Source: a virus. From it: 64,000 nt of DNA. Made by a program: the position numbers and the translations under genes. The DNA is taken from IMG/VR virus record IMGVR_UViG_3300005805_000044; one strand, 5' to 3'. How positions within the stretch are numbered: position 1 is the stretch's first letter; the number at the start of each line of letters is the position of its first letter. Under the pieces are notes generated by a model. It saw only the letters and a list, made by a program, of their open reading frames with translations. It did not search any database and had not been told where the DNA came from. Below, piece by piece: positions 7,272 through 39,082 of the stretch.

Positions 7272-7287
7272 AAAAATATATAGGTTT

Positions 7288-19158: not shown

Positions 19159-20518
19159 GTTTGTAATTTTTAAGAAAATATTCTAAATCTTCAGGTGTTC
19201 CCAACCCCCACATTTTTTCAATGTTGTAGGTTCTAACTTTCTTTCCATCTTGAATGGCCTCATTAAATACAGGGCACACATAAAACTCGTTGTTGACTCT
19301 GATGTTCTTATTGATCATCTGTTCAGCATACTTGACATAATCAGAGCCACGACGCCAATAATAAACTCCCACAGTGGCAACATCACTGATTGGCTTCTTT
19401 TCAGCAACCTCAGTAACATATCCAAATTCATTTAACTTCGCAAAACTCCATTTTGGATGTGTTGATTTAAATGTAAGAATATTAGCATCCAAATCACTTG
19501 CACCACAATGATACATAAAGTCGTCACTATCCCATTCTACAAACTGATCACTATTAGCAATTATAAGAGGATCATTGTTATTAATATATTCCTTTGCTAA
19601 TAATGTGGTGATAGCAGCTCCTTCGGTCACTCCCTCTATCTGAATAATTTTGTTGTTTGGACAAAAATTATTTATTGTGTCTTTGAGATTATACTGTTCA
19701 TAATGACCTTTTTGAACAATAAAAATATACTTGGCATCCACATTCAAATTATCAACAACCCATTGAATCATTGGCTTACCACGAACGTCAATCAGTGGTT
19801 TAGGAAAAGTATATCCAGCTTTTTCAAATCGACTTCCCGCTCCTGCCATTGGAATGATTACGTTCATTTTCCCCCCTTGCCATTTGGGTCTTTTGATATT
19901 TTTATTGATACAATCTATATGTTCTATAATATTTTCATACGTAATATCGTGTGGATTATTCACACCAAGTAAATAAGCACCGCTATTATTTGCAGCATTA
20001 CGTCCAATAACACTGTCCTCAACAATAAGAGTTTCTTTTGGTGTAACACCAGATTGAATCATCGATTTCAAATAAATTTCAGGATGTGGTTTTGAATGTT
20101 TAACATCTTCATTTGACAGATAAAAATCAATATACTCTAAAAGTCCCAATTTCAAAAGTGTGATCTTAACACTATCACGAATACTGTTACTAGCTACCGC
20201 AATTTGACACTTTTGTTTGAGTTTCTTAAGAACTTCTATTAGTCTAACATCGGGTTGCAACTCTCTTAACATCTGAGAAGTATAAAGTTGTTTACGCATC
20301 CATATACTTTCAAACTCCATCCCACTCAGTCCTTTTTCTCTACCAAGAATTTCCAATTTTTTATATGTGCTTAATCCATCATACTTAGAAAGATGTTCTT
20401 GATATGAAATTTCATATTTTGAATCAACATCACGTAATGCTTTATTTAAAGCATCATAATGAAGTTTTTTAGTCTCTACCAATACACCATCTAAATCAAA
20501 AATGATCAATTTAATCAT
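19151..20518 (-). CDS. HAD phosphatase fused to BcbE-like sugar nucleotidyltransferase
   Basis: N-terminal FDLDGVL, VASN, KPHPEIY, VEDS..G. C-terminal IIPMAGAGSRF..PKPLI, NSDQ, AEKKPIS, NNEFYV, LGTPEDL. Confidence 0.88.
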   Translation of the reverse strand: MIKLIIFDLDGVLVETKKLHYDALNKALRDVDSKYEISYQEHLSKYDGLSTYKKLEILGREKGLSGMEFESIWMRKQLYTSQMLRELQPDVRLIEVLKKLKQKCQIAVASNSIRDSVKITLLKLGLLEYIDFYLSNEDVKHSKPHPEIYLKSMIQSGVTPKETLIVEDSVIGRNAANNSGAYLLGVNNPHDITYENIIEHIDCINKNIKRPKWQGGKMNVIIPMAGAGSRFEKAGYTFPKPLIDVRGKPMIQWVVDNLNVDAKYIFIVQKGHYEQYNLKDTINNFCPNNKIIQIEGVTEGAAITTLLAKEYINNNDPLIIANSDQFVEWDSDDFMYHCGASDLDANILTFKSTHPKWSFAKLNEFGYVTEVAEKKPISDVATVGVYYWRRGSDYVKYAEQMINKNIRVNNEFYVCPVFNEAIQDGKKVRTYNIEKMWGLGTPEDLEYFLKNYKHE

Positions 20519-20525
20519 AAAATTG

Positions 20526-23174
20526 TTACAAATTTTTGTATATGTTTGAATTTACCATTGTTTCTAAGAAATGACCAATCTCCACTTTGTAGCGTATTGT
20601 TTTTAAATATAAATGTGCTCTGCGAATAAGATCATAATCTTTTAACTTGTCTTCCAGATCATATATACTGTCAATATATAATGGATATGATTCTCCTAAA
20701 TATTCAACAACTGCTGGTAGTCTATTTATAAATAATGGTGTTCCACGTGCAATACACTCAATTATTACGTTATTAGCACTACAATCATACAAATCTAAAT
20801 ATACTAAATTTTCTGACAAAATTTTATCATATTCATCATTTGATAAAAAGTCTAATGTTTTTACAGACTTTCTTTGTTCATCTGTAATATGTTGATTACT
20901 GGTGATTTCCTCGATTTTCTCTAACTCAAAGATCTTATCTTTAGAGTTGTTGTTGGATAACAATCTTATTTTTTTGTAATCGTTTGTTTTTACTGTATAT
21001 AAAGCATTTAGTTTTCGTAACCACCATCCAATAGTTACTAATTTTTTATCTTCATTTTTTACAAATTTATCAAAATCAAATTGTAACTCTGGTATTTCAG
21101 TGGGATGAAATAAACTTTCAACTGGCACATGCGGAATATATTTTCTCACAATTTTAGCATGATATTCTGACAATGTATATATTCCTTTACATTTTCTCAA
21201 ACTTTCTATAAAATATGGATCTTTAAATATTAAATTATTAAACACATTTATATCAGAAAACCATGGCGGTATATTTGGGGGGTTGTGTATGAAACCAATC
21301 CAGGACTTACTGTATGGTATTGTATTTTTTAAAATACATTCATATTTTCTCATCGCAAAGTTATTTTCAATAAACCCATCGCAATATACTCCGTTGTTTG
21401 AATTTAATGCACTTAACCCATGTAAAACGTAATTCCATCCAGATCTATGTGAATAGAAAGAAAGTTGTTTTTCTAAACTAATTTTTTTATTAAATTTGTT
21501 TGAGTCAACAATATTTTTAAATTTAATAATAATATCTCCATATTGTCCTTTATCAACTATAACAGATTTATTAATAACTTTTAGTGCATTTTTGAATATA
21601 GATTCATCGAAATTTTCTTCACGTAATTGCAATCTACTGGTATTGTTTTTTATACCGTTAACATAAATATCTACCAATTTAATTCCATATTCTTTGTTTT
21701 GTTCACGACCTATATTAGTTCCATTAGATGTAGTTTCTATATAAAACTTAATGTGTTTTTTATCTTTTGAAATGATTTTAAATGAATACTGGCCACGTTT
21801 TAAATCGTAAGTTTTTTCTATACCATCTACATTCAATCTAAACGATGTGTTTTTTGTAATTTCTAATACTGCTTCGAATTTTAATACACTGTCGCCTACA
21901 ACAATTTCGGCTTCTTTTTTGCTCCATACTCCATTAATTATATTTTCTTTATGCCATCCATCTTTTAACCATATTGGAAACAATGATGAATTTTCTGTGT
22001 CTGTGGTATATGGTTTGTATAATTCAATACTTTCAAAATAAATTGATTTGTTAATATTAACATAATACGATTCTTTAAGTTGATTTACAAAATCATCATA
22101 AGATGGAGATATTCCTTTTGTATTCAAACTTATCCACAATGATTGATTTCGTGAAGACTTATCTCTACTTGATATATTTATCGTGTTATAATTAACCTCA
22201 TATAAATTTTTGTAATCATGCAAATAATCTGTGAGTCCACCATGTAAAGGAGTAACTATATATTTATTTTTTATTTTGGAATTAAAACATGGCAAATTAA
22301 ATCCTTCACCATTAGAAGCGTTGATGTATATATCGACATTATCATATAAACTTTGCATTTGATCAAATGTCATGAAATCATCAATTATTATAATAGGAGC
22401 ATATGCAAAATTTTTATTTTTATTTTTTATTTTATTGACAATAATTTTTTTGATATTATCGTCAGATTGTTTTAAATTCTCTTTAAGATCAGTTAATTTT
22501 AATATTAAAACAGTTTCATCTTCATAACTAAATGTATCCAAATAAGACTCAACTATGAAATTAATATTTTTTCTTAATGCTAATGAAGAAACATTCAAAA
22601 ACTTTACACGGTCAATAATTCTCTCAAAATTTATTGGAACTGAACTATACACCTTCGCATGATTAATTAAATCAACTAATTGATATTTTTTATATGAAAT
22701 ATCTGGAATTGTGTGTGGTTCAACAATTATGTCTTTTTTGACACCAGAATTAATAAAAATTTCTCTGCACCATGTAGATGGCACACTCACAATGTTGACA
22801 ATACTTTTATTTATATGATTGACCCAATCTTCTGGCAAAGGATCAAAATCCCACACAGTTCTACCTATTATTTTTTTATCAAATAATAGATCTTTATTTT
22901 CTTCAATCAATCTATTCCATGTATCGGGAGATGAGTGTATAACTACTTCAGCACCTTCTAACTTTTTAATACGATTAAATAACGGTAACTTTTTTACATT
23001 ATTTTTATAAAAGTTGTAATATTCAGTTCCATCATTTTTATGAGGTATAGTTAAAGGGTAAAAATATACTTCATTATCATTTTTTATTAAATCATAAATA
23101 TACCCTTTTATCGCATTCGCATATCCACTTACACCATCTGCTCCAAAATAAATAACTTTTTTCTTAGAATCCAT
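20526..23174 (-). CDS. Multidomain glycosyltransferase (GT4 + beta-sandwich module + second GT-B-like domain)
   Basis: VSGYA, RKN, GEGFNLP; central GWHKE..VWS; C-terminal HRSGW and SANNVIIECIARGTP. Confidence 0.75.
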   Translation of the reverse strand: MDSKKKVIYFGADGVSGYANAIKGYIYDLIKNDNEVYFYPLTIPHKNDGTEYYNFYKNNVKKLPLFNRIKKLEGAEVVIHSSPDTWNRLIEENKDLLFDKKIIGRTVWDFDPLPEDWVNHINKSIVNIVSVPSTWCREIFINSGVKKDIIVEPHTIPDISYKKYQLVDLINHAKVYSSVPINFERIIDRVKFLNVSSLALRKNINFIVESYLDTFSYEDETVLILKLTDLKENLKQSDDNIKKIIVNKIKNKNKNFAYAPIIIIDDFMTFDQMQSLYDNVDIYINASNGEGFNLPCFNSKIKNKYIVTPLHGGLTDYLHDYKNLYEVNYNTINISSRDKSSRNQSLWISLNTKGISPSYDDFVNQLKESYYVNINKSIYFESIELYKPYTTDTENSSLFPIWLKDGWHKENIINGVWSKKEAEIVVGDSVLKFEAVLEITKNTSFRLNVDGIEKTYDLKRGQYSFKIISKDKKHIKFYIETTSNGTNIGREQNKEYGIKLVDIYVNGIKNNTSRLQLREENFDESIFKNALKVINKSVIVDKGQYGDIIIKFKNIVDSNKFNKKISLEKQLSFYSHRSGWNYVLHGLSALNSNNGVYCDGFIENNFAMRKYECILKNTIPYSKSWIGFIHNPPNIPPWFSDINVFNNLIFKDPYFIESLRKCKGIYTLSEYHAKIVRKYIPHVPVESLFHPTEIPELQFDFDKFVKNEDKKLVTIGWWLRKLNALYTVKTNDYKKIRLLSNNNSKDKIFELEKIEEITSNQHITDEQRKSVKTLDFLSNDEYDKILSENLVYLDLYDCSANNVIIECIARGTPLFINRLPAVVEYLGESYPLYIDSIYDLEDKLKDYDLIRRAHLYLKTIRYKVEIGHFLETMVNSNIYKNL

Positions 23175-23218: not shown

Positions 23219-24178
23219 TTACTTAGATATTACCTTTATGATCTTTGCTATACATGCCATGAAAGTAATTTCTTTGTCAATCACTAACGCATTTTGATAC
23301 AAACTTTCAGATATGTCTACAATCACACTAATACTATGTCCATTGTCATATTCTGGCGATTTATTATACAACTCAGAATACAACTCATCAAAGTGTTTGA
23401 TTCCTGCATCATTTACCAACTGTCTAATCTCAGTAAATGCCTTCTTGTTGGTCTTGACGGTCTTTAGAATTGAAACCAATTTGTTCTTAACATCCGCGTT
23501 TGCGGTCTGAAGTTTGACCAGTTCCAAGTTACCACTGGTTGAACTCTGTTGAACAACATTGACGATTTTACGAATATCTGGATAATACTCTTTAACCACA
23601 GTCGCAACAGTTGGCATATCATATGTAATATTCTCCTTTGTAAGGATCTTAACAATATACATTGCTACATCCTTCATCGTAGGAGGTTCCAACTTGAACA
23701 CTTGAGTTCTACTGAACAACGGTTCAATAATCTTATCAATGTAGTTACAAGTAAGAATAAATCTGGTTGTCTTACTGTAGGTCTCCATCAGATTACGAAG
23801 TGATGCCTGTGAGTTTGTAGACATATAATCGGACTCATCAAGAATTACAATCTTAAGATCATTGAAACCCATCGTTGAAGCAAATGGCTTGATCTTATCA
23901 CGAACAAAATCAACACCAGTATTATCTGATGCGTTGACATACATTACATCACATGGAATATTCTTGGTAATAATCTTCGCAAGTGTAGTCTTACCAGTTC
24001 CTGCATTACCATGAAACAACAAATGTCCAGGCACATCTTTCTTGGTAATAAAGTCTGAGATGATGGATCTGACACGTTCATCACAGATATAATCTTCCAA
24101 TGTGTCTGGACGATACTTTTCAGCCCAAACGCCATGATCAGAAACTTGAGGTTGTTCTGTTTCAGTAAAGAAACTCAT
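23219..24178 (-). CDS. gp44: Clamp loader large subunit (RFC/gp44-like AAA+)
   Basis: WAEKYRP, GNAGTGKTT, NASD, ILDESD, FILTCN. Confidence 0.92.
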   Translation of the reverse strand: MSFFTETEQPQVSDHGVWAEKYRPDTLEDYICDERVRSIISDFITKKDVPGHLLFHGNAGTGKTTLAKIITKNIPCDVMYVNASDNTGVDFVRDKIKPFASTMGFNDLKIVILDESDYMSTNSQASLRNLMETYSKTTRFILTCNYIDKIIEPLFSRTQVFKLEPPTMKDVAMYIVKILTKENITYDMPTVATVVKEYYPDIRKIVNVVQQSSTSGNLELVKLQTANADVKNKLVSILKTVKTNKKAFTEIRQLVNDAGIKHFDELYSELYNKSPEYDNGHSISVIVDISESLYQNALVIDKEITFMACIAKIIKVISK

Positions 24179-24186: not shown

Positions 24187-24924
24187 TTAGTCAATATTCT
24201 TGAATTCGATCAGAAAATAATTACTGTTGAACAAATCATTGTTGAACTCAACGTTCGCAATACCTGCGTCACTGATCTTCAATACAGCATTATCACAATC
24301 AGTGTTTGAAGTCAAGATCTCCTTTAGATACTTAGCACTGAAATGAAGCGTCTTACTAATCTTATCCTTACCCTCAGATGCTTTGATATCAATATTGATT
24401 CTATTACTGTTGGTATTGCTATACCCCAACGTCATCTTGATCTTACCCTTCTTATCGGCGTTAAGTGTAAAAATATCAATATCACTCAATGCACCTTTTG
24501 CCTTAACAAATGTAGAAACAAACTCCTTGGTCAACGGAATCTCCAAATTGAATGGAGGCAACTTCTTGAGTTCAGCAGTCTTAGGAATAACACTTAGATC
24601 TGCGGTAACATACTGAATGTCGGTATCGACACTATTGATCATAAGTGACGTTACCTTGTCGTTGGTCTTGACTGGAGAGATGGTTACATCATCACCAAGA
24701 ACCGTCAACATCTTCTTTAACTTGGCAGTGTCATTAACACCAATTTCCAAGTCTTCAAGACCATCGTTATCCTTGATGGTTACAAATGCCAAAACATTCT
24801 TATCATCACTGATTGCGGATGTCTTGATGGTCTTTTCCTTTGAGTTAACTACCCACTTAACAGATTCAATGGTTCCGTTGAGTGAATACTTGTCTATAAA
24901 TGTGTTTAGTGTATTTTTCTTCAT
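24187..24924 (-). CDS. gp45: DNA polymerase sliding clamp (gp45-like)
   Basis: 245-aa two-domain beta-rich protein with YVTADLSVI. Directly upstream of clamp loader as in T4-like phages. Confidence 0.75.
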   Translation of the reverse strand: MKKNTLNTFIDKYSLNGTIESVKWVVNSKEKTIKTSAISDDKNVLAFVTIKDNDGLEDLEIGVNDTAKLKKMLTVLGDDVTISPVKTNDKVTSLMINSVDTDIQYVTADLSVIPKTAELKKLPPFNLEIPLTKEFVSTFVKAKGALSDIDIFTLNADKKGKIKMTLGYSNTNSNRINIDIKASEGKDKISKTLHFSAKYLKEILTSNTDCDNAVLKISDAGIANVEFNNDLFNSNYFLIEFKNID

Positions 24925-24933: not shown

Positions 24934-24962
24934 ATGCTACTATACTTGCTTGTTTGTGTCAA
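24934..24962 (-). promoter_or_regulatory. Sigma70-type promoter for clamp/clamp loader
   Basis: TTGACA-17-TAGCAT. Confidence 0.55.
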
Positions 24963-25372
24963 ACTGTTTCAAAAAATTCTTCTGGAATCACCGAAATATT
25001 TTCTTTATTCTTGATACATTTCTCTAATTGATTATCTTTGAGATAAAACAAATGTTCGGGCGATATGTAGAAGTTACCAATTTTATAATCTGCATACGCA
25101 ACACTACGCATCTGATAATATACCTTGACGTTTGTGTTGTTTGTTCTAAATTCTATATAATATACTTTTGGATCACTTAATCTATACAACTGACTCTTAG
25201 GAATGTATAGTTTATCACAATATATTTGATTACTAGTAAATTCAACATATGGTCCACGTTGACCAATTACTACACGTTGATATTGAGTAGCAATTTCATC
25301 ATCTACAGAGGTATATATCTTTATTTTATCACCGTCTATTGGTAACTGTAACAGGTCTTCGTATTTTTTCAT
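24959..25372 (-). CDS. Hypothetical protein
   Basis: 137-aa ORF with motif-like YQRVVIGQRGPYVEF and V.YADYK. Confidence 0.6.
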   Translation of the reverse strand: MKKYEDLLQLPIDGDKIKIYTSVDDEIATQYQRVVIGQRGPYVEFTSNQIYCDKLYIPKSQLYRLSDPKVYYIEFRTNNTNVKVYYQMRSVAYADYKIGNFYISPEHLFYLKDNQLEKCIKNKENISVIPEEFFETV

Positions 25373-25385
25373 TCAATGACATTAT

Positions 25386-26024
25386 TTACTTTTTGAAAGC
25401 AGCTGCTAATCCATAGTCGTCTAGATTAGTGCAATACTCTATCACAGTGTAAATGTTTCTGTCAATGAAATCCAAAAATATATTTGGTCCTGGATGATAA
25501 TTGGTATCGTGAAATATTACAACACCTTTGTCTGATAACAAATCTGAATACTTCCAGTCATTAATAACAGTATTGATTGAGTGCCATCCATCTATGAACA
25601 ATACATCTATTTTGTTCATACCAATTTCTTTAAGATAATTTCGAATAATATCTTGATCATGAGAGTTGGATCTGATTGTATATACTTTGTTTTCGTTATC
25701 GTTTAGAAAAGATTTATCGTCTAAATCGATTCCACAATAAATTCCATCTTTAGTTTTTCGTTTTATTAATGTATGAGTAAATGACCTATTTCCATTACGT
25801 GCCACACCAATCTCTACTATATTTTTTACTAAAATTTTATCTAAAATTGTCTCCAAAGAACTCAAATTACAATCAGTTATTTCTAGATATGGTCTAATTT
25901 CTTCATAAGCATATCCCATATCATCGTAATTATTTAAATCCGGGTTGACAAAACTTGGAATTTGTAGTAATCCAAATATATCAGTTTTGTATTTGACTAT
26001 TTGATCTTTATAACACTCTTTCAT
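25386..26024 (-). CDS. Class I SAM-dependent methyltransferase (Methyltransf_24-like)
   Basis: IVEIGV, GID, LFIDGWH, VIFHDT. Confidence 0.8.
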   Translation of the reverse strand: MKECYKDQIVKYKTDIFGLLQIPSFVNPDLNNYDDMGYAYEEIRPYLEITDCNLSSLETILDKILVKNIVEIGVARNGNRSFTHTLIKRKTKDGIYCGIDLDDKSFLNDNENKVYTIRSNSHDQDIIRNYLKEIGMNKIDVLFIDGWHSINTVINDWKYSDLLSDKGVVIFHDTNYHPGPNIFLDFIDRNIYTVIEYCTNLDDYGLAAAFKK

Positions 26025-26027
26025 ATT

Positions 26028-26354
26028 TCAATCGTTATATTTGTCATTTGCTACTGATGGTGTTTTGATTACTATCAATTCACAATCTTCAAGAAATATT
26101 GGTTTGACCGATTCATTTTTATCAACAACAAAGATTTTGCCAGCATCAATTAAAACATTGTTGATTAACATTTTACCACGAATCAAAAAGTTAATCTCGG
26201 TGCTTAACTTGTGATGGTGTTTTGGCCACTCTTCATCTTTATAATGAAGTTTGTAACTCACTTCGAATTGATCAGTCTTAAATACTGTTGGTTCAAAGTT
26301 TCCAATAAACCAACCTCCTTGTTTCATGTATGGGTTAGAATCAAAAATTTGCAT
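26028..26354 (-). CDS. Small cupin-fold protein
   Basis: GWFIGNFEP, HHHK..TEIN (cupin motif 1), GKM, VIKTPS..DK. Confidence 0.72.
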   Translation of the reverse strand: MQIFDSNPYMKQGGWFIGNFEPTVFKTDQFEVSYKLHYKDEEWPKHHHKLSTEINFLIRGKMLINNVLIDAGKIFVVDKNESVKPIFLEDCELIVIKTPSVANDKYND

Positions 26355-27078
26355 ATAACTTTTTAAATTTCTCTAAATCTTGTGGTATACCTATTGGATA
26401 ATGTTCATTGAAGAAATATTGAATTACTTTCATTCCATCATCAATCATATAATTGTAACTAGGTGCGATGTAAAATTCATTGTTTACTGTGTCATTATTG
26501 GCAAACATTTTATCACACGAATTGTAAAAATGTTTTGCTTTAGACCAATAGTGTAAACCATTCGTTGCATAATTGCTTAATACTATCTTTTCCTTAATTT
26601 GAGTTATATTTCCTTCATCGTCTAATTTGATATAACTATTCTTGGAACTGTTTGAATAAAATGTGCCGACCACACCATCAACACCATTCTTATTTGCAAA
26701 ATTAATAAATTTAGGCAAATCAAGATCAAAAATTATCTGGTCACAATTGACTATAATTAACTGTTCTTCTTCATCCAATACTTCTTTTGTAAGATAACAT
26801 GTTTTTGCCGGTCCAGCTTGTAGCTCGTCAACAATAAAATATGTAACATCTATGTCTTGTTCTTTAATATATTCGTAGATGGTATCTATAATATTGTATT
26901 TGGACTCATGTTCTTTTAAGATACAAACTGTAAATGATACATTTAAATGTTGATTAAAGTTTTCCAACACTCTTGCAAGCATAGGTTTTCCATTGACATC
27001 CAACAGAGGCTTGGGTTTGTTTGTATTGAATCTTTTACCCAACCCAGCTGCTGGAATAACAATGTTTAAATGATTCAT
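26341..27078 (-). CDS. BcbE-like sugar nucleotidyltransferase
   Basis: IVIPAAGLGKRF..PKPLL, NCDQ, KEK, NNEFYI, IGIPQDL. ATG 27078 overlaps the RLP stop (ATGA). Confidence 0.85.
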   Translation of the reverse strand: MNHLNIVIPAAGLGKRFNTNKPKPLLDVNGKPMLARVLENFNQHLNVSFTVCILKEHESKYNIIDTIYEYIKEQDIDVTYFIVDELQAGPAKTCYLTKEVLDEEEQLIIVNCDQIIFDLDLPKFINFANKNGVDGVVGTFYSNSSKNSYIKLDDEGNITQIKEKIVLSNYATNGLHYWSKAKHFYNSCDKMFANNDTVNNEFYIAPSYNYMIDDGMKVIQYFFNEHYPIGIPQDLEKFKKLYANF

Positions 27079-28277
27079 TTTTTGCCCCACACTTCTATAG
27101 CTTTGTTATATTCCTCGCCATACACCTTATTTATTGCCTGAACCATAGCTTTAACCCCAGCCTTGGCTCCCATAGGATGTGATGAAATAGATCCTCCAAC
27201 ATTTCCCATCCAGTCAACATGACCAAGTTCATTGGTTATATAATCAATCAAACCAGGATGTAGGCCACAACTCAAAGCTGATACTGAATTCAACTCTACT
27301 AGTTTTTTGATTGATCGTTTCAAACTTTCGGAATCGCTGTTGAGATATCCACCAATCATACCTACATGAAGCGTAGAACATCCACATCTACTAGCAATTT
27401 CAAATAATACCGTTTCATTTATAGAAAAATTATGTTGTGGATTTGTCCAAAGTCTATCTCCACTCTTTTGATAGTGAAGATACATATTTCTGAATGAATC
27501 TTTTACCAACTTATAAGCACCATATCCACTATGAATATTGATGTGGACACCATTGATACCCATCTTTTCTATTTTCTCCACACGACTTTCTAAGTATTTA
27601 TGGTCGCATGTAATGGATGGACAATATACCAACTTAATATTGTTTGTGCGTATATAATTTGCTACACGTTCTAGTCTTTTTCTAATTGAACAAAATGATT
27701 GGTTAGACAATATTTCATCTTCTTTAATAAAGTTACAACCATTGTCTGCATAAATTTTAAACACCTCAAAGTAATCTTCCGCATTCAATCCAATCTTTGG
27801 TTTGATAATTCCACCAAACAATGGTTTATTGTAAGTATTAGTTAACTTACGTATTTCATTCAATCCTAAATTTGGACCAGAAAAGAATGATCTGAAATGT
27901 AGTGAAAATTCAATGTCTTCCAATCTACATTTTTCAATTATATCAATATCAAGTTGTCCGCCCATCAATGTAGTAAGAAAATGTGAGATACCATCCTCTT
28001 TATAATTAAAATTAGTATCCGGGTAAAATATTACTACCTTACCCTCACTTTTATTTGTTTCTTCTACAGATATGATTTTACAACAAAATTTTTCTATTAG
28101 TTTGTCTGTTTCAAACTCAGACCGTTTATTGGGATTGCCAATGCTTTGGCCAATTGCAATTGCTTTAGCAGCTTCATGCAATGTCGTTTTACTTTTTACA
28201 ATGTAGGTAACAAAATTACCATCTTTAACTTCGGACCTATTTTTATAGATAAGACTTTCTATGTTTGATTTTGTCAT
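27075..28277 (-). CDS. RuBisCO-like protein (form IV RLP)
   Basis: RLEDI.F, F.GP.LG, GGIIKPKIGL, NFIKEDE, LHVG, SCGLHPG, VGG.I.SHPMG are collinear with RuBisCO large subunit motifs. ATG 28277 (track start TTG 28292). Confidence 0.88.
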   Translation of the reverse strand: MTKSNIESLIYKNRSEVKDGNFVTYIVKSKTTLHEAAKAIAIGQSIGNPNKRSEFETDKLIEKFCCKIISVEETNKSEGKVVIFYPDTNFNYKEDGISHFLTTLMGGQLDIDIIEKCRLEDIEFSLHFRSFFSGPNLGLNEIRKLTNTYNKPLFGGIIKPKIGLNAEDYFEVFKIYADNGCNFIKEDEILSNQSFCSIRKRLERVANYIRTNNIKLVYCPSITCDHKYLESRVEKIEKMGINGVHINIHSGYGAYKLVKDSFRNMYLHYQKSGDRLWTNPQHNFSINETVLFEIASRCGCSTLHVGMIGGYLNSDSESLKRSIKKLVELNSVSALSCGLHPGLIDYITNELGHVDWMGNVGGSISSHPMGAKAGVKAMVQAINKVYGEEYNKAIEVWGKK

Positions 28278-28294
28278 AAACAATATAATCAATC

Positions 28295-28301
28295 ATATAT
28301 A
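28295..28301 (-). promoter_or_regulatory. TATATAT box upstream of RLP operon
   Basis: Immediately after gp43 stop, 17 nt before ATG 28277. Confidence 0.4.
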
Positions 28302-28302: not shown

Positions 28303-30960
28303 TCAGAAACTAAAGAATTCACCCAAAGTTTTGTCGGTTTGATTAGGATAATCCCAATTCAAAATATTATAAAAATCCATGAGTTTACCCTTCAACTCTT
28401 GTTCATACATGGCGGTTCTATCCACATATTTGTTAATGAAGTCGATGATTTGGTCTGGATCTGTTCCATCCGCTTTCAATGCAATACACTCTGATCCATA
28501 TTCATTTGATTTGAGATATACCCACTTAATCTTTTGTCCATGAAAGATTGGAGGAACCATCTTGTCAAGACCCCAATGTTGCAATAAGTCATTGTAAAAC
28601 AAAGCTGCCTTTGCCTGTGCAGTTGTTCCTTTGATATACTTGAACTTACTACGAGTCTTAGGATTATAGTCAGTCTTTGATTCACCACCACTCTTGAATT
28701 TTACACTAGTGTTCTTGGCAATTTCAATAACTGGAGAATCAACCAAATTTTTATCAAGAAACGTCAAGATATTTTGATCAATCACTTGTTTATCAGTCTT
28801 GCGAAGAATATCATTCAAAAACTGTTGCATGAACTTTCTGAACTGAATTGGAAATGACGTTCTAACTACGTCAATACCTTTCACTTCCATTTCATTAACA
28901 ACCAACCCACCATTGTTGATGATGAACTGGGCATAACGTTTCTTTGCCAACCAAAATCCAGTCTTGGCAATAACTTCTTGTTTTGCGTCAAACCGATGTT
29001 TTTCAATATTGAAGAATCGAAGAGACATCATATCATAAAACTTGTTTACAAACGATTGAACCTCACCAGTGACTTTGAGAATAGCCTCAGTCATCGCCTT
29101 TTCATCGTTCGTATCAATATCAGGCATGTTTTTCTGAATAATGGGAAGCGCACTTGCGAAACAAGAATCTGTATCGGTGTAGATCACCCAATCACCATCA
29201 GTTTCGTTTAGTGTCTTCTTGAAATATTCATTGATCGCTTTACCCGTCGTCTTGATGATATCTTGACCAGTTATAGTGACAGCGCTCGCATTATCCTTGT
29301 CATAGAATCTAAAAATCGGTAGACCCAATACACCATAAATGGAATTGAGAAGAACCTTTTGCACCTTCTGACGTTGTTCATAAAACTCATACATTCCCTC
29401 ATCACCTTTCTTATGATAATCCTTTGCCAACTTACGCATTTCTTTACGTTCATCGAACCACTTCACAAGAATCTCGGGAATAACACCTGGTATATCTTTG
29501 TTATACAATACACCGTTACTTGCAACACTCAAATTGGATTCGGATATTAACTTTTTGAATTGTTCGTGTGAATATACATTACCACCAATATGATACGAAG
29601 ACACTCTGTTTTGTGTAAACATCTTTGCATTATAGATATACAACTTCTGTTGAATATATTCTTCCAACGGAGTTTCTTTTTGTGTTGAATCACTCAGATT
29701 GTTATAATCTTCAGTCAACTCAGCTCTGCGATCTGCAACATATTGATCATCATATTCAATACGTTCAATCACAGCTATCTTGGTCTCAGGTGATATGTTA
29801 AGACTGATGATGATATTTGGATACATTGATGTAAGGTCCAAATCAAATACCCACTCATAACGACCAGGCTTAGGAGCCTTAACATACGCACCTTCAAATC
29901 CTTCTTCATTTTCATCAAGTCTCTGTTCATACTCCTCACGACCTTCCAAAGGTTTGTTCTTGGCAACTTGACCCTTACGGCGAAGATACATAAGAATCGC
30001 ACCCTCAATGAATCGTGAACTCATTTGATAACAATCATAAGGCACATGACCTTTATGACAAATAGCTCTAGCCAACTCAATAAACTGTAGTTTCTTCTCC
30101 AGTGCCACAATGATCTGCACGTCATTCAAGTTATACTCGACATATTTGTTGATGTCGGATTTATACAGATCATCCAAACTACCCTTGTAGGTAATCTTTT
30201 CCATGTTGACGATCTTTTTACCAATCGCACCCAATGCGTAACTTGGCTCTTTCTTGATGTTCAACTTTTCATACAACTTCATGTAATCCAAGTGAGTTAC
30301 ACCGGCAACAACCAACTTTTTACTCCAATCGTTTATATAAACAGTTCCAATCGGACTCATTCGTTTTGCTTGAGATGGTCCAATTACATTCTTCATTCTT
30401 CGATACAGATATGGCATATCGAATTGTTCACTGTTCCATCCAGTCACAATTGTAGGTTGAATTTCTTCCCACTTGGTAATAAAGTGAGTCAACAAACTAT
30501 CTTCATCAGTAAAACAACGAATTTCACGATTATCACTATCAGTGTCTTCCATCAAACCATTTCTGTCCAAAATAAAAGCGGTATACTTTGACGTAAGACT
30601 GTCATAAATTGCAATAGCGGTGATTTCCTTGTCTGCTTCATCAACATTTGGAAAACCACCTTCAGTGCTGACTTCAATATCAAGATACAATACACGATGA
30701 CCTTCAGATACATCGTCACTGTCTTCATACGCATCAATTAGAATACGTGTCTCAATAGGAACGTCTGATTCAAACAGCGATGGATCACGGGGATTAAAAC
30801 TATAAACCTTTTCCAAGTCATCACCAAAGATACTCTTGTATTTACCGTTTGGACGTTTACGATATGCATAAGGACGAAATACAAAACTGGTGTAACCCTT
30901 CTTATCGTCCCAAAGATGACATGTGTTCGTTTTCTTGTCGAAATAAATGTTCTGATACAT
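28303..30960 (-). CDS. gp43: Family B DNA polymerase (gp43-like)
   Basis: DIE exonuclease, GWN..FD, YN..D, DLTSMYP, K..LNS.YG, YTDTDS, KKRY. Confidence 0.95.
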   Translation of the reverse strand: MYQNIYFDKKTNTCHLWDDKKGYTSFVFRPYAYRKRPNGKYKSIFGDDLEKVYSFNPRDPSLFESDVPIETRILIDAYEDSDDVSEGHRVLYLDIEVSTEGGFPNVDEADKEITAIAIYDSLTSKYTAFILDRNGLMEDTDSDNREIRCFTDEDSLLTHFITKWEEIQPTIVTGWNSEQFDMPYLYRRMKNVIGPSQAKRMSPIGTVYINDWSKKLVVAGVTHLDYMKLYEKLNIKKEPSYALGAIGKKIVNMEKITYKGSLDDLYKSDINKYVEYNLNDVQIIVALEKKLQFIELARAICHKGHVPYDCYQMSSRFIEGAILMYLRRKGQVAKNKPLEGREEYEQRLDENEEGFEGAYVKAPKPGRYEWVFDLDLTSMYPNIIISLNISPETKIAVIERIEYDDQYVADRRAELTEDYNNLSDSTQKETPLEEYIQQKLYIYNAKMFTQNRVSSYHIGGNVYSHEQFKKLISESNLSVASNGVLYNKDIPGVIPEILVKWFDERKEMRKLAKDYHKKGDEGMYEFYEQRQKVQKVLLNSIYGVLGLPIFRFYDKDNASAVTITGQDIIKTTGKAINEYFKKTLNETDGDWVIYTDTDSCFASALPIIQKNMPDIDTNDEKAMTEAILKVTGEVQSFVNKFYDMMSLRFFNIEKHRFDAKQEVIAKTGFWLAKKRYAQFIINNGGLVVNEMEVKGIDVVRTSFPIQFRKFMQQFLNDILRKTDKQVIDQNILTFLDKNLVDSPVIEIAKNTSVKFKSGGESKTDYNPKTRSKFKYIKGTTAQAKAALFYNDLLQHWGLDKMVPPIFHGQKIKWVYLKSNEYGSECIALKADGTDPDQIIDFINKYVDRTAMYEQELKGKLMDFYNILNWDYPNQTDKTLGEFFSF

Positions 30961-31202: not shown

Positions 31203-31945
31203 TTAAGCTTAAAACCAAATATATTAGAATCATAATTTACAAACAATGTGTTGTCTAATTTTGTTTGCAAAGTCTTAATTTCGGCGGCATGAGATTCTTT
31301 TTCTACATCTTCTACTTCTTTTATACTAAAGCTGTTTCCAAGCACTGTTACTTTTGCTTCTCTTGGACTAAGTGCTGCTTGCGGAGTAATTACAAGAAAA
31401 TCTCCCTCTTTGATTTCTTTCTTTTTCTTTGAAGATTTTGTATCCAACACTGTTGCTTTGCCTTCTACCACATAAACTTGTGTAAACTTTTCGCCGGATT
31501 TAACAAACAATTTTGCTTTATCAAAAACAATCAATCCCATGCTTGTGCCAATTGTAAGTTGTTTGTCAGCTTCACTTATTACATACAATTCACCATTTGA
31601 TGAAAAATTAAATAAATGATCTTTGACTTTTACTACCTCAGGCAATTTAAAATTGTTAATGTATTCAGTTTGGGTTTGATTAAAATACGTCGCAGAGTTT
31701 TCCTTTTGACACACTGCTACTCTATATGGCAACACATATACGGATGTTCCATTTGTTGAAGTGGTGACCGACAAACTATTGGTCAAAGTATAAGTTTTTC
31801 CAACAGTAATATCATAGTCCTTTAACTTGTTTGCTACTACTTCAGAGATAGTTACACCCAATGTAGATTCATACAAAAATAGGTCATTACCAAATGCATT
31901 TATTGATAATAATACGGAGAAAATTATTGATGTTAATTTGTTCAT
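31199..31945 (-). CDS. Secreted protein with FecR-like beta-rich domain
   Basis: Signal peptide ending AFG, plus TQVYVVEGKATV motif typical of FecR domains. Confidence 0.5.
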   Translation of the reverse strand: MNKLTSIIFSVLLSINAFGNDLFLYESTLGVTISEVVANKLKDYDITVGKTYTLTNSLSVTTSTNGTSVYVLPYRVAVCQKENSATYFNQTQTEYINNFKLPEVVKVKDHLFNFSSNGELYVISEADKQLTIGTSMGLIVFDKAKLFVKSGEKFTQVYVVEGKATVLDTKSSKKKKEIKEGDFLVITPQAALSPREAKVTVLGNSFSIKEVEDVEKESHAAEIKTLQTKLDNTLFVNYDSNIFGFKLK

Positions 31946-31951
31946 ATGTTA

Positions 31952-31958
31952 ATAAATA
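31952..31958 (-). promoter_or_regulatory. TATTTAT box (putative late promoter)
   Basis: 6 nt before ATG 31945. Confidence 0.5.
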
Positions 31959-31968
31959 GTTGTTATAA

Positions 31969-31996
31969 TTGACACACGGTAATTATAGTGTATCAT
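31969..31996 (+). promoter_or_regulatory. Sigma70-type promoter for exonuclease operon
   Basis: TTGACA-16-TATCAT. Confidence 0.55.
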
Positions 31997-32002
31997 GTTG
32001 TT

Positions 32003-32893
32003 ATGTCTGATCAAGAAATAAAAAAGAATAGAGTAAGTTTTAGTCAATATTCCACGTTTTTAAAGTGTCCTCACAAGTGGTATCTTGATTATGTTAAGAA
32101 TCTACGTGTTCGTGATGATAATATCAATACCACGTTTGGAACTGCCATTCATCATGTATTTCAGACGTATCTAGATACACTGTATAAAAAGAGTGTGACC
32201 GAAGCAGACTCATTAAATCTTCGTCAAATGTTTATCGACAAATTTAGTGAAGAAGTGAAAAAGATCGCAACTGTAGGAGGATCATATACAGAAGAAGAAT
32301 TCACCGAATTTTGTTATGATGGTGAAGATATTATTTCTACATTTTGTAAGACCGCCAATAGACTTAAACATTTTCCAGCAAAAGAATATGAACTAATTGG
32401 TATTGAAATTCCTCTAGAAATTTCTATCAAAAATAATGTGGAGTTTGTTGGATTTATTGATATTGTCTTAAAAGAAGTCAATAAAGAACGATACAGAATC
32501 ATTGATTTTAAGACCTCAAGTCAAGGTTGGAACAAGTATCAAAAGGCTGACGAAGCTAAATATGCTCAGTTGCATCTCTACAAGAGTGTATACAGTAAGA
32601 AGTTCAATGTGCCTTTGGATGCAATTGATGTCGAATTTTTTATTGTTAAACGTAAGTTGTTAGAAAACGTTAGCTTTCCTCAAAGCAGAATTCAAGTGTT
32701 TGTTCCACCACATGGATCGAATGATATCAAAGAATCCATCAATAACTTTATTGAATTCTTGGATCATGGGTTCAACCCAGATGGGTCATATAACGAAACC
32801 AATCAGTATCCAAAGATTCCAGGCAATGGAAAAAAGAACTGCAAATATTGTATCCACTACAAGAAAATTTGCGATGGTAAAGCTACAAAATAA
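32003..32893 (+). CDS. PD-(D/E)xK exonuclease, Cas4/AddB-like with 4-Cys cluster
   Basis: SFSQ..CP, FGTAIH, GFID, IIDFKT, QL.LY, CKYC......C. Confidence 0.85.
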   Translation: MSDQEIKKNRVSFSQYSTFLKCPHKWYLDYVKNLRVRDDNINTTFGTAIHHVFQTYLDTLYKKSVTEADSLNLRQMFIDKFSEEVKKIATVGGSYTEEEFTEFCYDGEDIISTFCKTANRLKHFPAKEYELIGIEIPLEISIKNNVEFVGFIDIVLKEVNKERYRIIDFKTSSQGWNKYQKADEAKYAQLHLYKSVYSKKFNVPLDAIDVEFFIVKRKLLENVSFPQSRIQVFVPPHGSNDIKESINNFIEFLDHGFNPDGSYNETNQYPKIPGNGKKNCKYCIHYKKICDGKATK

Positions 32894-33164: not shown

Positions 33165-33709
33165 ATAAGAAAAAGAAAATACTTTTGTTAAGTGACGATT
33201 TGCGAATGCATAGTGGTGTAGCTACTATGAGTCGAGAATTAGTTACAGGCACCCTTCATCATTATGATTGGGTTCAAATGGCTGGAGCAATTAAACATCC
33301 TGAACAAGGAAAAGTGGTAGACATGTGTGATGCTTCAAATCGATTGACAGGTTTAAAAGATTGTTATTTAAAACTATATCCAGTTGATGGTTATGGTAAC
33401 GAAGAAATATTATTTAATGTAATGGCCGTTGAAAAACCGGACGCTATTTTACATTTTACAGATCCAAGATTTTGGACATGGTTATACTTGATCGAACATC
33501 AATTAAGAAGCAAAATTCCATTAACATACCTTGATATTTGGGATGATCTACCATATCCAATGTGGAACAAACCATTCTACAAGAGTTGTGATGCTCTATT
33601 TGCGATTAGTAAACAAACTGATAATATTAATAAGTGGGTCTTGGGCCCAGAAAACTGCACTAGTATTCACGGAGATTTTGATAAGGAAGGAAAAATTATA
33701 TGCCAGTAA
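33161..33709 (+). CDS. GT4 glycosyltransferase, N-terminal half (split gene)
   Basis: ILLLSDD..HSGVA, WDDLPYP, AISKQT. Lacks the nucleotide-binding domain. Confidence 0.75.
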   Translation: MNKKKKILLLSDDLRMHSGVATMSRELVTGTLHHYDWVQMAGAIKHPEQGKVVDMCDASNRLTGLKDCYLKLYPVDGYGNEEILFNVMAVEKPDAILHFTDPRFWTWLYLIEHQLRSKIPLTYLDIWDDLPYPMWNKPFYKSCDALFAISKQTDNINKWVLGPENCTSIHGDFDKEGKIICQ

Positions 33710-35231: not shown

Positions 35232-35234
35232 TTT

Positions 35235-36551: not shown

Positions 36552-36554
36552 TTT

Positions 36555-39057: not shown

Positions 39058-39082
39058 CATTATAATAATCTATATATCTAAT

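Follow-up and report, generated by a model that had tools for sequence, protein, structure and literature searches.

What is a gene for a RuBisCO-like protein (RLP) doing inside the replication module of a freshwater T4-like phage? In the 64-kb window analysed here (the whole stretch of DNA, 64,000 nucleotides long), genes for an RLP, a nucleotidyltransferase (NTase), a cupin and a SAM methyltransferase form one minus-strand block in the list of open reading frames. Sequence comparisons suggest that the block belongs to a conserved cassette that probably supplies glycan decoration with an unusual building block, either a nucleotide-activated sugar or a phospho-ketose/alditol unit, with the RLP as its signature enzyme.

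Organization of the gene block

The block and its surroundings comprise the following features.

17089-17559, plus strand: miniature GDPD-like phosphodiesterase (mini-GDPD), 156 aa
17480-18352, plus strand: second NTase paralog, 290 aa (PF00483, 5.3e-07), overlapping the end of the mini-GDPD gene
19151-20518, minus strand: fusion of HAD_2 (2.2e-30) and NTase, 455 aa, with NTP_transf_3 and an IspD-like C-terminal half
23219-24178: clamp loader
24187-24924: gp45-like sliding clamp gene (phrog_12062)
24959-25372, minus strand: 137-aa protein
25386-26024, minus strand: SAM methyltransferase (Methyltransf_24, 4e-07)
26028-26354, minus strand: small single-domain cupin, 108 aa, with a metal motif of two His and one Glu (phrog_24762, 1.8e-29)
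26341-27078, minus strand: sugar-phosphate NTase, 245 aa (PF00483, 2.4e-13), its start overlapping the RLP stop
27075-28277, minus strand: RLP, 400 aa (Pfam RuBisCO_large, 7.4e-31; RuBisCO_large_N, 3.5e-07)
28303-30960: DNA polymerase, family B (polB)

The initial annotation had placed a block of RLP, NTase, cupin and methyltransferase genes at 24959-28301, between gp43 and gp45. Its reading frames agree with the list above, minus strand throughout, and the flanks are a family B polymerase and a gp45-like gene, beyond which lies the clamp loader; the end at 28301 does not stand, since it falls in the 25-nt gap past the polB stop codon (28303-28305). The first in-frame ATG of the RLP is at 28277, the longest frame (27075-28292) opening with a TTG at 28292. 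Reading of the junction showed that the reported ATGA overlap is real, with the TGA stop of the RLP at 27077-27075 and the ATG of the NTase at 27078-27076, and because of this overlap the 245-aa product is more likely than that of the 249-aa frame with a GTG start. The overlap of 14 nt between NTase and cupin (26341-26354) and the position of the methyltransferase ATG at 26024, 3 nt past the cupin stop codon (26028-26030), were likewise as described, as were two further NTases of the same type in the window (17480-18352 and the HAD-NTase fusion). In the related phage Mel-JY01, the clamp gene directly follows polB with no block in between, and the block is thus an insertion.

Pfam identified six GT1/GT2 genes and two DUF3431 genes in the window, compared with the roughly 20 glycosyltransferases that the initial annotation gave for the genome. 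It also contains dUTPase/dCTP-deaminase-like and dNMP-kinase-like genes and, among defence-related genes, a DruA-like gene.

Active site and phylogeny of the RLP

The 400-aa RLP, an exact match to P0001, has RuBisCO chains as its best solved relatives (for example 8dht, E = 2e-30). It scored below every NCBIfam equivalog cut-off, including those for MtnW (131 vs 409 bits, and 99 vs 513.6 for a second MtnW equivalog), form III (152 vs 497) and OiaX (91 vs 700), and it scored best against the generic models for the large subunit and against type III. Retained are the Mg/carbamate enolisation core (K175, K177, K201, D203, E204 and H327) as well as S379, G381, G403 and G404. Substitutions were observed at nine positions: T65N, R295K, H298D and G380C, together with E60G, N123G, T173I, H294Q and K334Y, by which every member of the clade has lost five residues essential for carboxylation. 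Mapping of 20 active-site positions onto 89 viral, bacterial and archaeal relatives showed that 18 are fixed in 89/89 and that a further two hold in 87 or 88. This essentially invariant pattern of kept and substituted residues indicates that the clade represents one isofunctional enzyme, predicted to perform enolisation without carboxylation.

These data bear on the idea that the gene encodes a functional large subunit of RuBisCO, serving to raise CO2 fixation by the host, as auxiliary 'rbcL' genes in viruses are often annotated. Pfam and automatic source names do label the relatives 'ribulose-bisphosphate carboxylase large chain'; viral rbcL has been read as a gene for carbon fixation by recent papers on viromes (PMC12615777). 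With the five carboxylation residues lost throughout, a form III score at 152 bits against a cut-off of 497, and no small subunit, phosphoribulokinase or AMP-pathway gene nearby, we regard this explanation as extremely improbable.

In the phylogeny, the RLPs formed a monophyletic clade (SH-aLRT 99) apart from the form I, form II, MtnW and OiaX-type references. MtnW was the nearest reference, albeit on a long branch (SH-aLRT 92). The residue losses and the missed cut-offs agree with the initial annotation that the protein is neither a carboxylase nor MtnW, and the grouping with MtnW that would have spoken against it was not recovered. Carriers include phages, giant-virus-like contigs, Pelagibacter (SAR11), Legionella, Francisellaceae, Azospirillum and DPANN archaea, and a copy from Beckwithbacteria (L096) nests inside the clade.

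Phage RLPs as such are not new. Jaffe, Castelle, Dupont and Banfield (Mol Biol Evol 2019; PMC6389311) described 'form IV-like' RuBisCO-related proteins from phages and Beckwithbacteria and left their function open. Like the proteins studied here, these are divergent RLPs without the carboxylase residues, encoded on large phage contigs of myovirus type that come from many environments, and from this description and the placement of L096 the two clades are very probably the same. The main text of that paper contains no word beginning with 'nucleotidyl', 'glycosyl', 'cupin' or 'pyrophosphorylase', and we found no published report of a link between RLP and NTase in the literature. The present analysis adds the linkage to NTase, cupin and mini-GDPD, the fusions and the invariant residue signature, and it extends the carriers to Pelagibacter, Legionella, Francisellaceae, Azospirillum, DPANN archaea and giant-virus-like contigs. 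We classify the RLP as a putative non-carboxylating, enolase/isomerase-type member of an NTase-linked 'IV-like' clade.

Linkage and fusions across genomes

In a dereplicated set of 88 RLP loci, an NTase was found nearby in 82, a mini-GDPD in 66 and a cupin in 51, while no NTase was detectable in the remaining 6/88. The mini-GDPD was present in 56 of the 59 viral loci. An NTase homolog was located within 5 kb of the RLP in 83/85 loci, whereas polB was found within 10 kb in only 11/85. Gene orders varied (NT-cupin-RLP-GDPD, RLP-NT-cupin, NT-RLP-cupin, and cases with NTase and cupin on the opposite strand). A reciprocal search of IMG/VR anchored on the cupin yielded 80 loci, with an RLP in 75, an NTase in 79 and a mini-GDPD in 61; four of the five loci that lacked an RLP within 7 kb had an NTase. 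Seven loci encode an NTase-cupin fusion of about 353 aa, and P0121 and P0122, which are 52% identical over their full length, are RLP-NTase-cupin triple fusions of about 815 aa. At L016, the cupin's fusion partner is a C-methyltransferase with Methyltransf_23 and Methyltransf_14, the Pfam domains of sugar C-methyltransferases. The co-occurrence in shuffled orders, the reciprocal search and the fusions support a functional tie of the RLP to the NTase and cupin.

The core of the cassette would thus consist of the RLP and the sugar-phosphate NTase, with the small cupin and the mini-GDPD as frequent partners. Compared with the block as first annotated, RLP, NTase and cupin hold, but the methyltransferase is only occasional (17/88 loci) and the frequent mini-GDPD had been left out. 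Because of this sporadic occurrence the methyltransferase, which also shows a weak likeness to CmcI and sugar O-methyltransferases (RMNT_CmcI, 0.002), is predicted to be an accessory tailoring enzyme rather than a core component. Nor is the 137-aa gene core, since its homologs are confined to the closest relatives (3/85 loci); the protein had no Pfam, PHROG or NCBIfam match, its call had fairly good confidence in the Atlas alone, and it probably lies outside the cassette.

The block NTase scored 50.7 bits to PF00483 (cut-off 21.2), matched phrog_3980 (2e-48) and has the NDP-sugar pyrophosphorylase 4evw as its best solved relative; its N-terminus is IspD-like (34.8 bits, Pfam cut-off 27). The BcbE/KfoE label first attached to it is given by no source name or curated family. 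The second paralog and the NTase domain of P0122 share 26% identity. Full-length homologs of the HAD-NTase fusion, whose HAD_2 domain is of the phosphatase/phosphomutase class, occur near the RLP in eleven loci, several of them duplicate contigs, with 54% identity to the Pelagibacter copy, and the fusion appears to be an occasional accessory.

The cupin had no Pfam match, to MannoseP_isomer or to any other curated cupin family. Its identification is nevertheless borne out by an invariant HxH(x4)E(x6)G motif (H46, H48, E53, G60), in which the second cupin-motif histidine is missing, and by an AlphaFold model of very high confidence for which every Foldseek match was a cupin, the top one being a phosphomannose isomerase from Thermococcus (7zvm, 6.8e-06, only 22% identity). 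In this phage the mini-GDPD is displaced 9.5 kb from the RLP to a position beside the second NTase, where it was matched by tblastn from 86 cassette copies. It has invariant H6, R7, N19, E35, D37 and H49, a profile match to the GDPD 7e0v (4.9e-04) and a model of very high confidence, and its best 13 Foldseek matches were all GDPDs.

Could the RLP and the cupin instead be a salvage pair that recycles a by-product derived from SAM? In methionine salvage, the MtnW enolase is paired with a cupin acireductone dioxygenase. In the methylthioadenosine-isoprenoid shunt of Rhodospirillum rubrum, the RLP is a 5-methylthioribulose-1-phosphate isomerase that shifts the carbonyl along a phosphorylated pentulose, acts with a small cupin methylsulfurylase and ultimately feeds the cytidylyltransferase IspD. 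The same pairing, the IspD-like N-terminus of the NTase, MtnW as the nearest reference in the tree and the abundance of SAM methyltransferases in the islands fit such a role. The RLP also shares the fold, K175, K201, D203, E204 and the lack of carboxylation with MtnW/YkrW (the form IV 2,3-diketo-5-methylthiopentyl-1-phosphate enolase), which argues for a similar enolisation of a phosphorylated keto compound. However, it is only about 26% identical to MtnW, missed both MtnW cut-offs widely and differs from the MtnW reference at K177, H294, R295, H327 and K334, and mtnW is neighboured by mtnX and an aminotransferase rather than NTase and cupin. Near the RLP there is no recurrent mtnA, mtnB, mtnK or mtnX, nor DXR or any further gene of isoprenoid synthesis, and SAM methyltransferases release S-adenosylhomocysteine, not methylthioadenosine. 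The R. rubrum RLP, set apart here by description, is not known to have a fused or adjacent NTase or a GDPD-like partner. As salvage also leaves the triple fusions and the glycan-locus context unaccounted for, we consider it quite unlikely.

Glycan context and cellular copies

In phages and cells alike, the genes around the RLP are overwhelmingly of glycan type. SDR epimerase/dehydratases (32/88 loci), Methyltransf_21, Methyltransf_24, TylF, UDP-GlcNAc 2-epimerase and GT2 turn up repeatedly. The copy on the Pelagibacter chromosome is located amid genes of the heptose-pathway type (SIS, PfkB kinase, adenylyltransferase-like, epimerase) and near Glyco_transf_9 (heptosyltransferase family) and CTP_transf_3 genes. 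In Francisellaceae, the copy is in a Gtr-like locus with Bac_transf on one side and GT2, GtrA and a 709-aa protein on the other, and LicD adjoins the Legionella copies, being limited to loci of Legionellaceae. Several 'cellular' copies from metagenome bins could be mis-binned phage DNA.

Two other explanations were weighed. The first is that the cassette makes a donor for hypermodification of phage DNA, placing a sugar or phospho-sugar on a modified base; this is the same chemistry with a different acceptor. T4-like phages glycosylate hydroxymethylcytosine, and the insertion between polB and the sliding clamp in this phage and close relatives, the absence of a terminator-like site between polB and the RLP, and the dUTPase/dCTP-deaminase-like and dNMP-kinase-like genes are consistent with it. 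Against this, the cassette is mostly outside the replication module in other phages (polB nearby in the 11/85 loci), cellular copies are in envelope-glycan loci (Glyco_transf_9, Bac_transf, GtrA, LicD), and no base-hydroxymethylase was detected by Pfam in the window, making this explanation unlikely. The second holds that the cassette handles a small molecule derived from a nucleotide, such as a signal, cofactor or anti-defence metabolite, with the NTase and phosphodiesterase making or breaking a nucleotide-linked compound. Such a pairing is common in nucleotide-signal metabolism, sugar activation gives the mini-GDPD no clear role, the RLP resembles RuBisCO chains and the generic large-subunit and type III models most, and DruA marks defence-related genes in the window. 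Yet the NTase belongs with the sugar-phosphate (GT-A-like) enzymes and not with the CD-NTase or Nmnat class, the cassette is surrounded by glycosyltransferases, epimerases and sugar methyltransferases, cellular copies are housed in envelope-glycan loci, and no defence or signalling partner recurs at RLP loci; we rate this as very unlikely.

A predicted sugar-building pathway

The initial annotation had proposed an anabolic glycan pathway in which the RLP would first remodel a sugar phosphate, the NTase would activate it, cupin and methyltransferase would tailor the nucleotide sugar and the phage glycosyltransferases would take up the product. This proposal is supported in part: the tie to NTase and cupin, the glycan neighbours and the non-carboxylase, non-MtnW nature of the RLP agree with it, and the loci showed the linkage to NTase and glycan genes whose absence would have spoken against it. 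The methyltransferase, occasional as it is, does not fit as a regular member. What we observed is the linkage, the fusions, the residue pattern and the glycan context; the substrate, the order of steps, the nucleotide, the role of the mini-GDPD and the acceptor are inferred. The RLP would use its Mg site of carbamylated Lys, Asp and Glu together with Lys175 to enolise a keto-sugar phosphate, and reprotonation would result in isomerisation or epimerisation instead of carboxylation. The metal-dependent cupin may perform a further aldose-ketose or keto isomerisation, after which the NTase would join the remaining phosphate to an NTP. Methyltransferases and the many neighbouring transferases would tailor and then install the unit, candidate acceptors in this phage being a virion protein, the host envelope or DNA.

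Two known systems are close to parts of this scheme. ManC/AlgA-type mannose-1-phosphate guanylyltransferase/mannose-6-phosphate isomerases have an N-terminal NTase and a C-terminal cupin isomerase, the same architecture as the seven NTase-cupin fusions, and the best structural match of the cassette cupin is a small phosphomannose isomerase. The cassette cupin differs in lacking a MannoseP_isomer match and the second motif histidine and in its low identity to 7zvm, and we know of no GDP-mannose pathway with an RLP, which the cassette adds. TarI, IspD and relatives (CDP-ribitol, CDP-6-fructose/glucitol, CDP-ME) activate polyols or ketoses at a primary phosphate ester with no need for a mutase, and LicD-type enzymes pass their products on as phospho-units. 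These share the NTase fold, the IspD-like N-terminus and, at the Legionella copies, LicD with the cassette, but a reductase rather than an RLP prepares the substrate there and LicD is confined to the Legionellaceae among cassette loci. The cassette has no conserved kinase or phosphomutase across the RLP loci, which leaves the source of an anomeric sugar-1-phosphate unexplained. By analogy with the enzymes for CDP-ribitol or CDP-ME, the substrate of the NTase could instead be a primary phosphate ester, in which case the product would be a donor of phospho-units and not a classical nucleotide sugar.

Further points weigh against the glycan-unit reading: a linear route to a sugar nucleotide offers no obvious place for the mini-GDPD, five cupin-anchored loci lack a nearby RLP and 6/88 RLP loci a detectable NTase, several cellular copies may be phage DNA, and the location inside the replication module in this phage would fit DNA modification as well. 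On balance, the gene linkage leads us to predict a cassette in which the RuBisCO fold has a sugar-building job.

Gene order around the RLP in the window

The gene for the RuBisCO-like protein (RLP) belongs to a run of minus-strand genes transcribed in the order polB, RLP, sugar-phosphate nucleotidyltransferase (NTase), cupin, methyltransferase, 137-aa protein, clamp and clamp loader. A miniature GDPD-like phosphodiesterase (mini-GDPD) and two extra NTases are displaced 6-10 kb from the RLP.

Table. Genes of the cassette and its flanks in the window (coordinates, strand, description)
28303-30960, minus, family-B DNA polymerase, polB (phrog_262, 3e-175)
27075-28292, minus, RLP (longest ORF); from the first in-frame ATG (28277) it has 400 aa, as does the exact database match P0001
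26341-27090, minus, NTase (ORF); the likelier start is the ATG at 27078-27076
26028-26354, minus, cupin, 108 aa; no Pfam hit, recognized by cupin motif and fold
25386-26024, minus, methyltransferase; ATG 3 nt after the cupin stop
24959-25372, minus, 137-aa protein
24187-24924, minus, gp45-like clamp
23219-24178, minus, clamp loader
17089-17559, plus, mini-GDPD; overlaps the second NTase gene
17480-18352, plus, second NTase; overlaps the mini-GDPD gene
19151-20518, minus, HAD-NTase fusion, near the mini-GDPD gene

Reading the sequence across the gene junctions bore out those described in the initial annotation: the RLP stop codon TGA (27077-27075) overlaps the NTase ATG (27078-27076), the NTase and cupin genes overlap by 14 nt, and a 3-nt gap separates the cupin from the methyltransferase. 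The block had also been located between gp43 and gp45, and it is indeed flanked by the family-B polymerase and the gp45-like clamp. Likewise, the two further nucleotidyltransferases that had been reported were found in the window, at 17480-18352 and in the HAD-NTase fusion at 19151-20518. The RLP, NTase, cupin and methyltransferase genes were thus placed correctly, but the block as annotated omits the fourth member of the cassette, the mini-GDPD at 17089-17559.

The nearest deposited phage is Microcystis phage Mel-JY01 (polB 44% identical), in which the clamp gene directly follows polB, indicating that the block was inserted into a replication module of T4-like type. The location of the cassette inside this module leaves room for an alternative to a role in surface glycans, namely that its product is used for DNA modification in the window phage. 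The stretch recurs in metagenomes from lakes and other freshwaters in several independent studies. Neither megablast of the block nor tblastn of the RLP yielded a match among GenBank phages (50,697 records), a set from which the records of the nearest genomes are possibly absent, and an Atlas look-alike search with the 137-aa protein returned nothing above 0.77. A scan identified 57 promoter-like sites, no informative departure from the 48.8 +/- 7.4 expected. Within 31920-32010, the strongest sigma-70-like matches of the scan fall at 31945 (minus) and 31988 (plus), in the 42-nt gap between diverging gene blocks; by consensus match only, this is a candidate for the region of a divergent promoter that would serve the operon with polB and the cassette.

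A conserved clade of non-carboxylating RuBisCO-like proteins

The RLP matched both large-subunit domains in Pfam (PF00016, 7.4e-31; PF02788, 3.5e-07) and 99 solved RuBisCO or RLP chains at E <= 0.001 (best E about 1e-30), and 1535 relatives were retrieved by sequence at E <= 1e-05. Judged from these similarities, it is a genuine homolog of the RuBisCO large subunit. Its scores were below all curated NCBIfam cut-offs, including those for PRK04208 (157.7 versus 438), type III (152.3 versus 497) and PRK13475 (102.2 versus 489).

To compare the active sites, we mapped 20 positions via an alignment to a form I reference in 89 members of the clade. The core for enolization and metal binding is retained (K175, K177, K201, D203 and E204), as are H327, S379, G381, G403 and G404, and four of these residues, K175, K201, D203 and E204, corresponding to K164, K190, D192 and E193 of the 405-aa ORF, are invariant in all 89 members. 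The substitutions in the window RLP are E60G, T65N, N123G, T173I, H294Q, R295K, H298D, K334Y and G380C. Among these, the carboxylation and RuBP-binding residues E60, N123, T173, H294 and K334, all retained in the form I reference, give way to G, G, I, Q and Y, respectively, in all 89 members. Overall, 18 of the 20 mapped positions are identical in every member, be it from phages, giant-virus-like contigs, bacteria or archaea; H298D is found in 87 and G404 in 88 of the 89, and W66 is variable. Such fixation across the clade argues for a single conserved reaction, which from the residues retained and lost would begin, in common with other RLP reactions, with Mg-assisted abstraction of a proton beside a carbonyl and could not finish as a carboxylation. 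A carboxylating RuBisCO of forms I-III was rejected: the fold and the metal and enolization residues are present, but the five carboxylation and RuBP residues are replaced and the NCBIfam cut-offs are missed.

We inferred a quick maximum-likelihood tree from the 89 members of the clade together with eight reference sequences found in plasmid records (form I, form II, the methionine-salvage RLP MtnW, the sugar-acid catabolism RLP OiaX and four other RLPs). A grouping of the RLP with MtnW would have refuted the initial annotation, and the tree is in its favour: the clade is monophyletic and excludes all eight references (SH-aLRT 99), with MtnW as the nearest reference on a long branch, in a tree that has long branches, a short search and no form III reference, so that the relation to form III is read from HMM scores only. 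With the root placed on forms I and II, the deep branches are cellular, with Elusimicrobia and Azospirillum followed by Legionellaceae with Francisellaceae, then DPANN archaea, a Planctomycetes bin and Patescibacteria, although some rows labelled "cellular" derive from metagenome bins and might be phage DNA. The viral radiation comes thereafter, with Pelagibacter nested within it.

Identity with MtnW was rejected because both equivalog cut-offs are missed (131 versus 409; 99.3 versus 513.6), no mtnX, mtnA, mtnB or mtnK neighbours were found in 88 loci, and the clade is separate. An OiaX-type protein, acting in the catabolism of apiose and related sugar acids, was rejected as well: the score of 91.4 is far from the cut-off of 700, and a four-carbon acid sugar kinase follows the RLP in 5 of 5 references of the OiaX group, whereas the cassette loci have no such recurrent neighbour. 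A group of divergent "IV-like" RLPs from myovirus-type phage contigs and Beckwithbacteria, placed apart from the other RLPs and lacking carboxylase residues, has already been published, with its function left open (PMC6389311). Judged by these published features, the window RLP matches the group: it has T4-like flanks and has lost the carboxylase residues, and a Beckwithbacteria copy (L096) falls inside our clade.

Linkage and fusions of the cassette genes

To quantify the linkage, we collected 80 loci from IMG/VR and 34 from species-representative genomes encoding an RLP relative, plus contigs retrieved by exact protein look-up. An NTase homolog was located within 5 kb of the RLP in 83 of 85 loci and a cupin was near it in 73, while polB and clamp genes were near it in 11 and 7 of the 85, respectively. 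Once the loci had been dereplicated at 90% RLP identity and their neighbours clustered, the NTase was present in 82 of 88 loci, the mini-GDPD in 66 (56 of the 59 viral ones), the cupin in 51, an SDR epimerase/dehydratase in 32 and each of two methyltransferase families in 17. A reciprocal search, anchored on the cupin only, yielded 80 viral loci, with the RLP in 75, the NTase in 79 and the mini-GDPD in 61. Homologs without linkage to nucleotidyltransferase or glycan genes would have refuted the initial annotation, and the linkage found here is in its favour. The commonest gene order is NTase-cupin-RLP-GDPD; the clade of the window phage has RLP-NTase-cupin, and elsewhere the order is NTase-RLP-cupin or the NTase and cupin are on the opposite strand. 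Five of the cupin-anchored viral loci (L150, L151, L171, L173 and L184) contained a cupin with no RLP within 7 kb, together with an NTase in 4 and a mini-GDPD in 3, and are possible RLP-less variants of the cassette.

Several of the genes are also fused. The NTase and the cupin form a single protein of about 353 aa in seven loci, mostly from giant-virus bins (contigs labelled GVMAG), and two proteins of 813 and 817 aa contain the RLP, NTase and cupin in one frame and are 52% identical to each other throughout. The contig with one of these triple fusions, P0122 (L123, JGI 3300053698, 10.4 kb), additionally has genes for a protein with a Pox_VLTF3 domain, which is of the poxvirus late transcription factor type, and for a P9_TM protein, so that a giant virus of eukaryotes is its probable source. 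Another fusion, in a phage (L016:2017-3480), joins the cupin to a C-methyltransferase of 380 aa, whose domains are Methyltransf_23 and Methyltransf_14, the latter being the C-terminal domain family of sugar C-methyltransferases. This hints that the cupin may act on a keto-sugar open to C-methylation.

Features of the partner proteins

The NTase matched PF00483 with 50.7 bits (gathering cut-off 21.2) and has an N-terminal glycine-rich loop with arginine and lysine, in which P9, G12, R16 and K23 are invariant among 37 sequences. Its 120 listed homologs have generic names only, such as "NDP-sugar pyrophosphorylase" and "dTDP-glucose pyrophosphorylase", and neither these names nor a curated family gives the BcbE/KfoE label of the initial annotation. 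A predicted complex of the RLP and the NTase scored 0.00, which gives no verdict either way.

In the cupin, motif 1, HxH(x4)E(x6)G, is represented by H46, H48, E53 and G60, invariant in 31 sequences (consensus G(x)5HxH(x)3-4E(x)6G). No conserved histidine follows G60 in the cupin alignment where motif 2 would supply the fourth metal ligand, which would leave three ligands from the protein at the metal site. The model (pLDDT 96.7) gave 201 Foldseek matches at E <= 0.001, all cupins among the matches listed, with a small Thermococcus phosphomannose isomerase at the top. The motif and the structural matches identify the 108-aa protein as a cupin with the double-stranded beta-helix fold and rule out an analogue of the RuBisCO small subunit.

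The mini-GDPD (about 150 aa) had no Pfam hit and a sequence profile matched its first 50 or so residues only. It contains the GDPD motifs His-Arg, Glu/Asn, Glu-x-Asp and His-Asp, in which H6, R7, N19, E35, D37 and H49 are invariant while D50 is almost so, and these align with the equivalent motifs of the GDPD 7e0v. The best 13 structural matches to the model (pLDDT 97.3) were all GDPDs, at a Foldseek E of about 2e-03 and a TM-score of 0.55-0.6 by query. It corresponds to about two thirds of a barrel, whereas a full GDPD is a (beta/alpha)8 barrel of about 220-250 aa.

Glycan genes around the cassette in phages and cells

The phage neighbours include genes for glycosyltransferases, SDR epimerase/dehydratases, methyltransferases of the TylF, Methyltransf_21 and Methyltransf_24 types, UDP-GlcNAc 2-epimerase and a WavE-like protein. 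In the window, Pfam recognized six GT1/GT2 genes, along with two DUF3431 genes, one more gene of Methyltransf_24 type and one resembling UDP-glucose dehydrogenase; many ORFs of 300-390 aa had no hit at all.

In a complete Pelagibacter chromosome, the RLP-NTase pair is located amid genes of heptose-pathway type (SIS, PfkB kinase, adenylyltransferase-like and epimerase), with Glyco_transf_9 (the heptosyltransferase family), CTP_transf_3 and a HAD-NTase fusion in the same neighbourhood. Across its full length, the HAD-NTase fusion of the window shares 54% identity with that of Pelagibacter sp. Uisw_094 (L122:2758-4128), which lies 7 kb from the RLP of that genome. The shared fusion and the nesting of the Pelagibacter RLPs among viral ones suggest an exchange of genes between SAR11-type hosts and phages of this kind.

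A Francisellaceae single-cell genome has the order Bac_transf, RLP, cupin, NTase, 709-aa protein, GT2, mini-GDPD and GtrA, and this locus looks like a Gtr-type system for surface-glycan modification. In Legionellaceae loci, from three species of Legionella and one Tatlockia bin, a gene of the LicD family faces the RLP-NTase pair. These were the only loci with LicD, which was therefore rejected as a general partner of the cassette.

Other genes in the window

A second block of glycan type on the opposite strand (33700-41085, plus) contains a GT1 gene with a "GT4-conflict" hit, a dUTPase gene, a pair of GT2 genes and a gene for 267 aa that resembles UDP-glucose/GDP-mannose dehydrogenases without the C-terminal domain, which may form a split dehydrogenase with the 125-aa ORF that follows. 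Almost no Pfam hits at E <= 0.001 were obtained for a nine-ORF run at 4102-13645 (minus), most of them 300-390 aa, or for the 882-aa ORF adjoining the clamp loader (20526-23174, minus), weak relatives of which are found beside the cassette in close relatives of the phage. Two adjacent paralogs of about 190 aa (2953-4100, minus) match the N-terminal third of DUF3431 only (3.4e-15 and 7.8e-07). The replication region also encodes a UvdE-type UV endonuclease (43446-44357, minus; 2.6e-43) and a P-loop protein resembling phosphomevalonate and dNMP kinases (41729-42400, minus). A 392-aa protein (44827-46005, minus) matches the family of the Druantia defence protein DruA (PF14236, 7.4e-19); a defence-system component is unusual in a lytic-type phage.

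Discussion

In viral and cellular glycan loci, a non-carboxylating RLP whose active site is all but fixed is linked by genetics, and in some cases by fusion, to a sugar-phosphate NTase and to a small metal cupin, and a miniature phosphodiesterase often accompanies the three. We infer that the four proteins together make one activated unit. In the most economical scheme, the RLP would enolize and isomerize a keto-sugar phosphate, the cupin would perform an aldose-ketose or keto isomerization, and nucleotidyl transfer would follow.

The product could take either of two forms. It might be a classical anomeric NDP-sugar, in line with the Gtr-like context, but no mutase or kinase is conserved in the loci, the occasional HAD-NTase fusion aside. 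A mutase would be unnecessary if the product were instead a primary phosphate ester linked to an NDP, similar in type to CDP-ribitol or CDP-ME, and were passed on as a phospho-unit; the IspD-like N-terminus of the NTase and the LicD gene adjoining the Legionella RLP-NTase pair point in this direction, and the phosphodiesterase would gain a substrate.

We give an even chance to the reading that the RuBisCO fold has taken on an anabolic role, such that the invariant RLP, with its NTase, cupin and mini-phosphodiesterase, synthesizes some activated sugar or phospho-ketose. This unit would decorate the surfaces of SAR11, Legionella, Patescibacteria and DPANN archaea, as well as abundant aquatic phages and giant viruses, on their virions or DNA. 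To our knowledge, all characterized RuBisCO-like proteins act in carbon fixation, sulfur and methionine salvage or sugar-acid catabolism, and our literature search found no paper reporting the cassette, its fusions or a glycan reading of an RLP.

Automatic pipelines name the genes of this clade "ribulose-bisphosphate carboxylase large chain"; virome studies count viral rbcL among the genes for carbon fixation (as in PMC12615777, cited for the practice only). Members of the clade should be left out of carbon-fixation gene counts. Because the active site is fixed all the way from Legionella to giant-virus-like contigs, assigning the biochemistry of one member would annotate the whole family; Legionella nautarum, L. 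maceachernii, L. drozanskii and Azospirillum oleiclasticum are cultured carriers, and the natural triple fusions offer a single polypeptide for assay. A role in glycan biosynthesis, if true, would give a new function to an enzyme fold that is among the most studied, adding a new reaction class to the RuBisCO superfamily and a new monosaccharide building block to environmental glycans.
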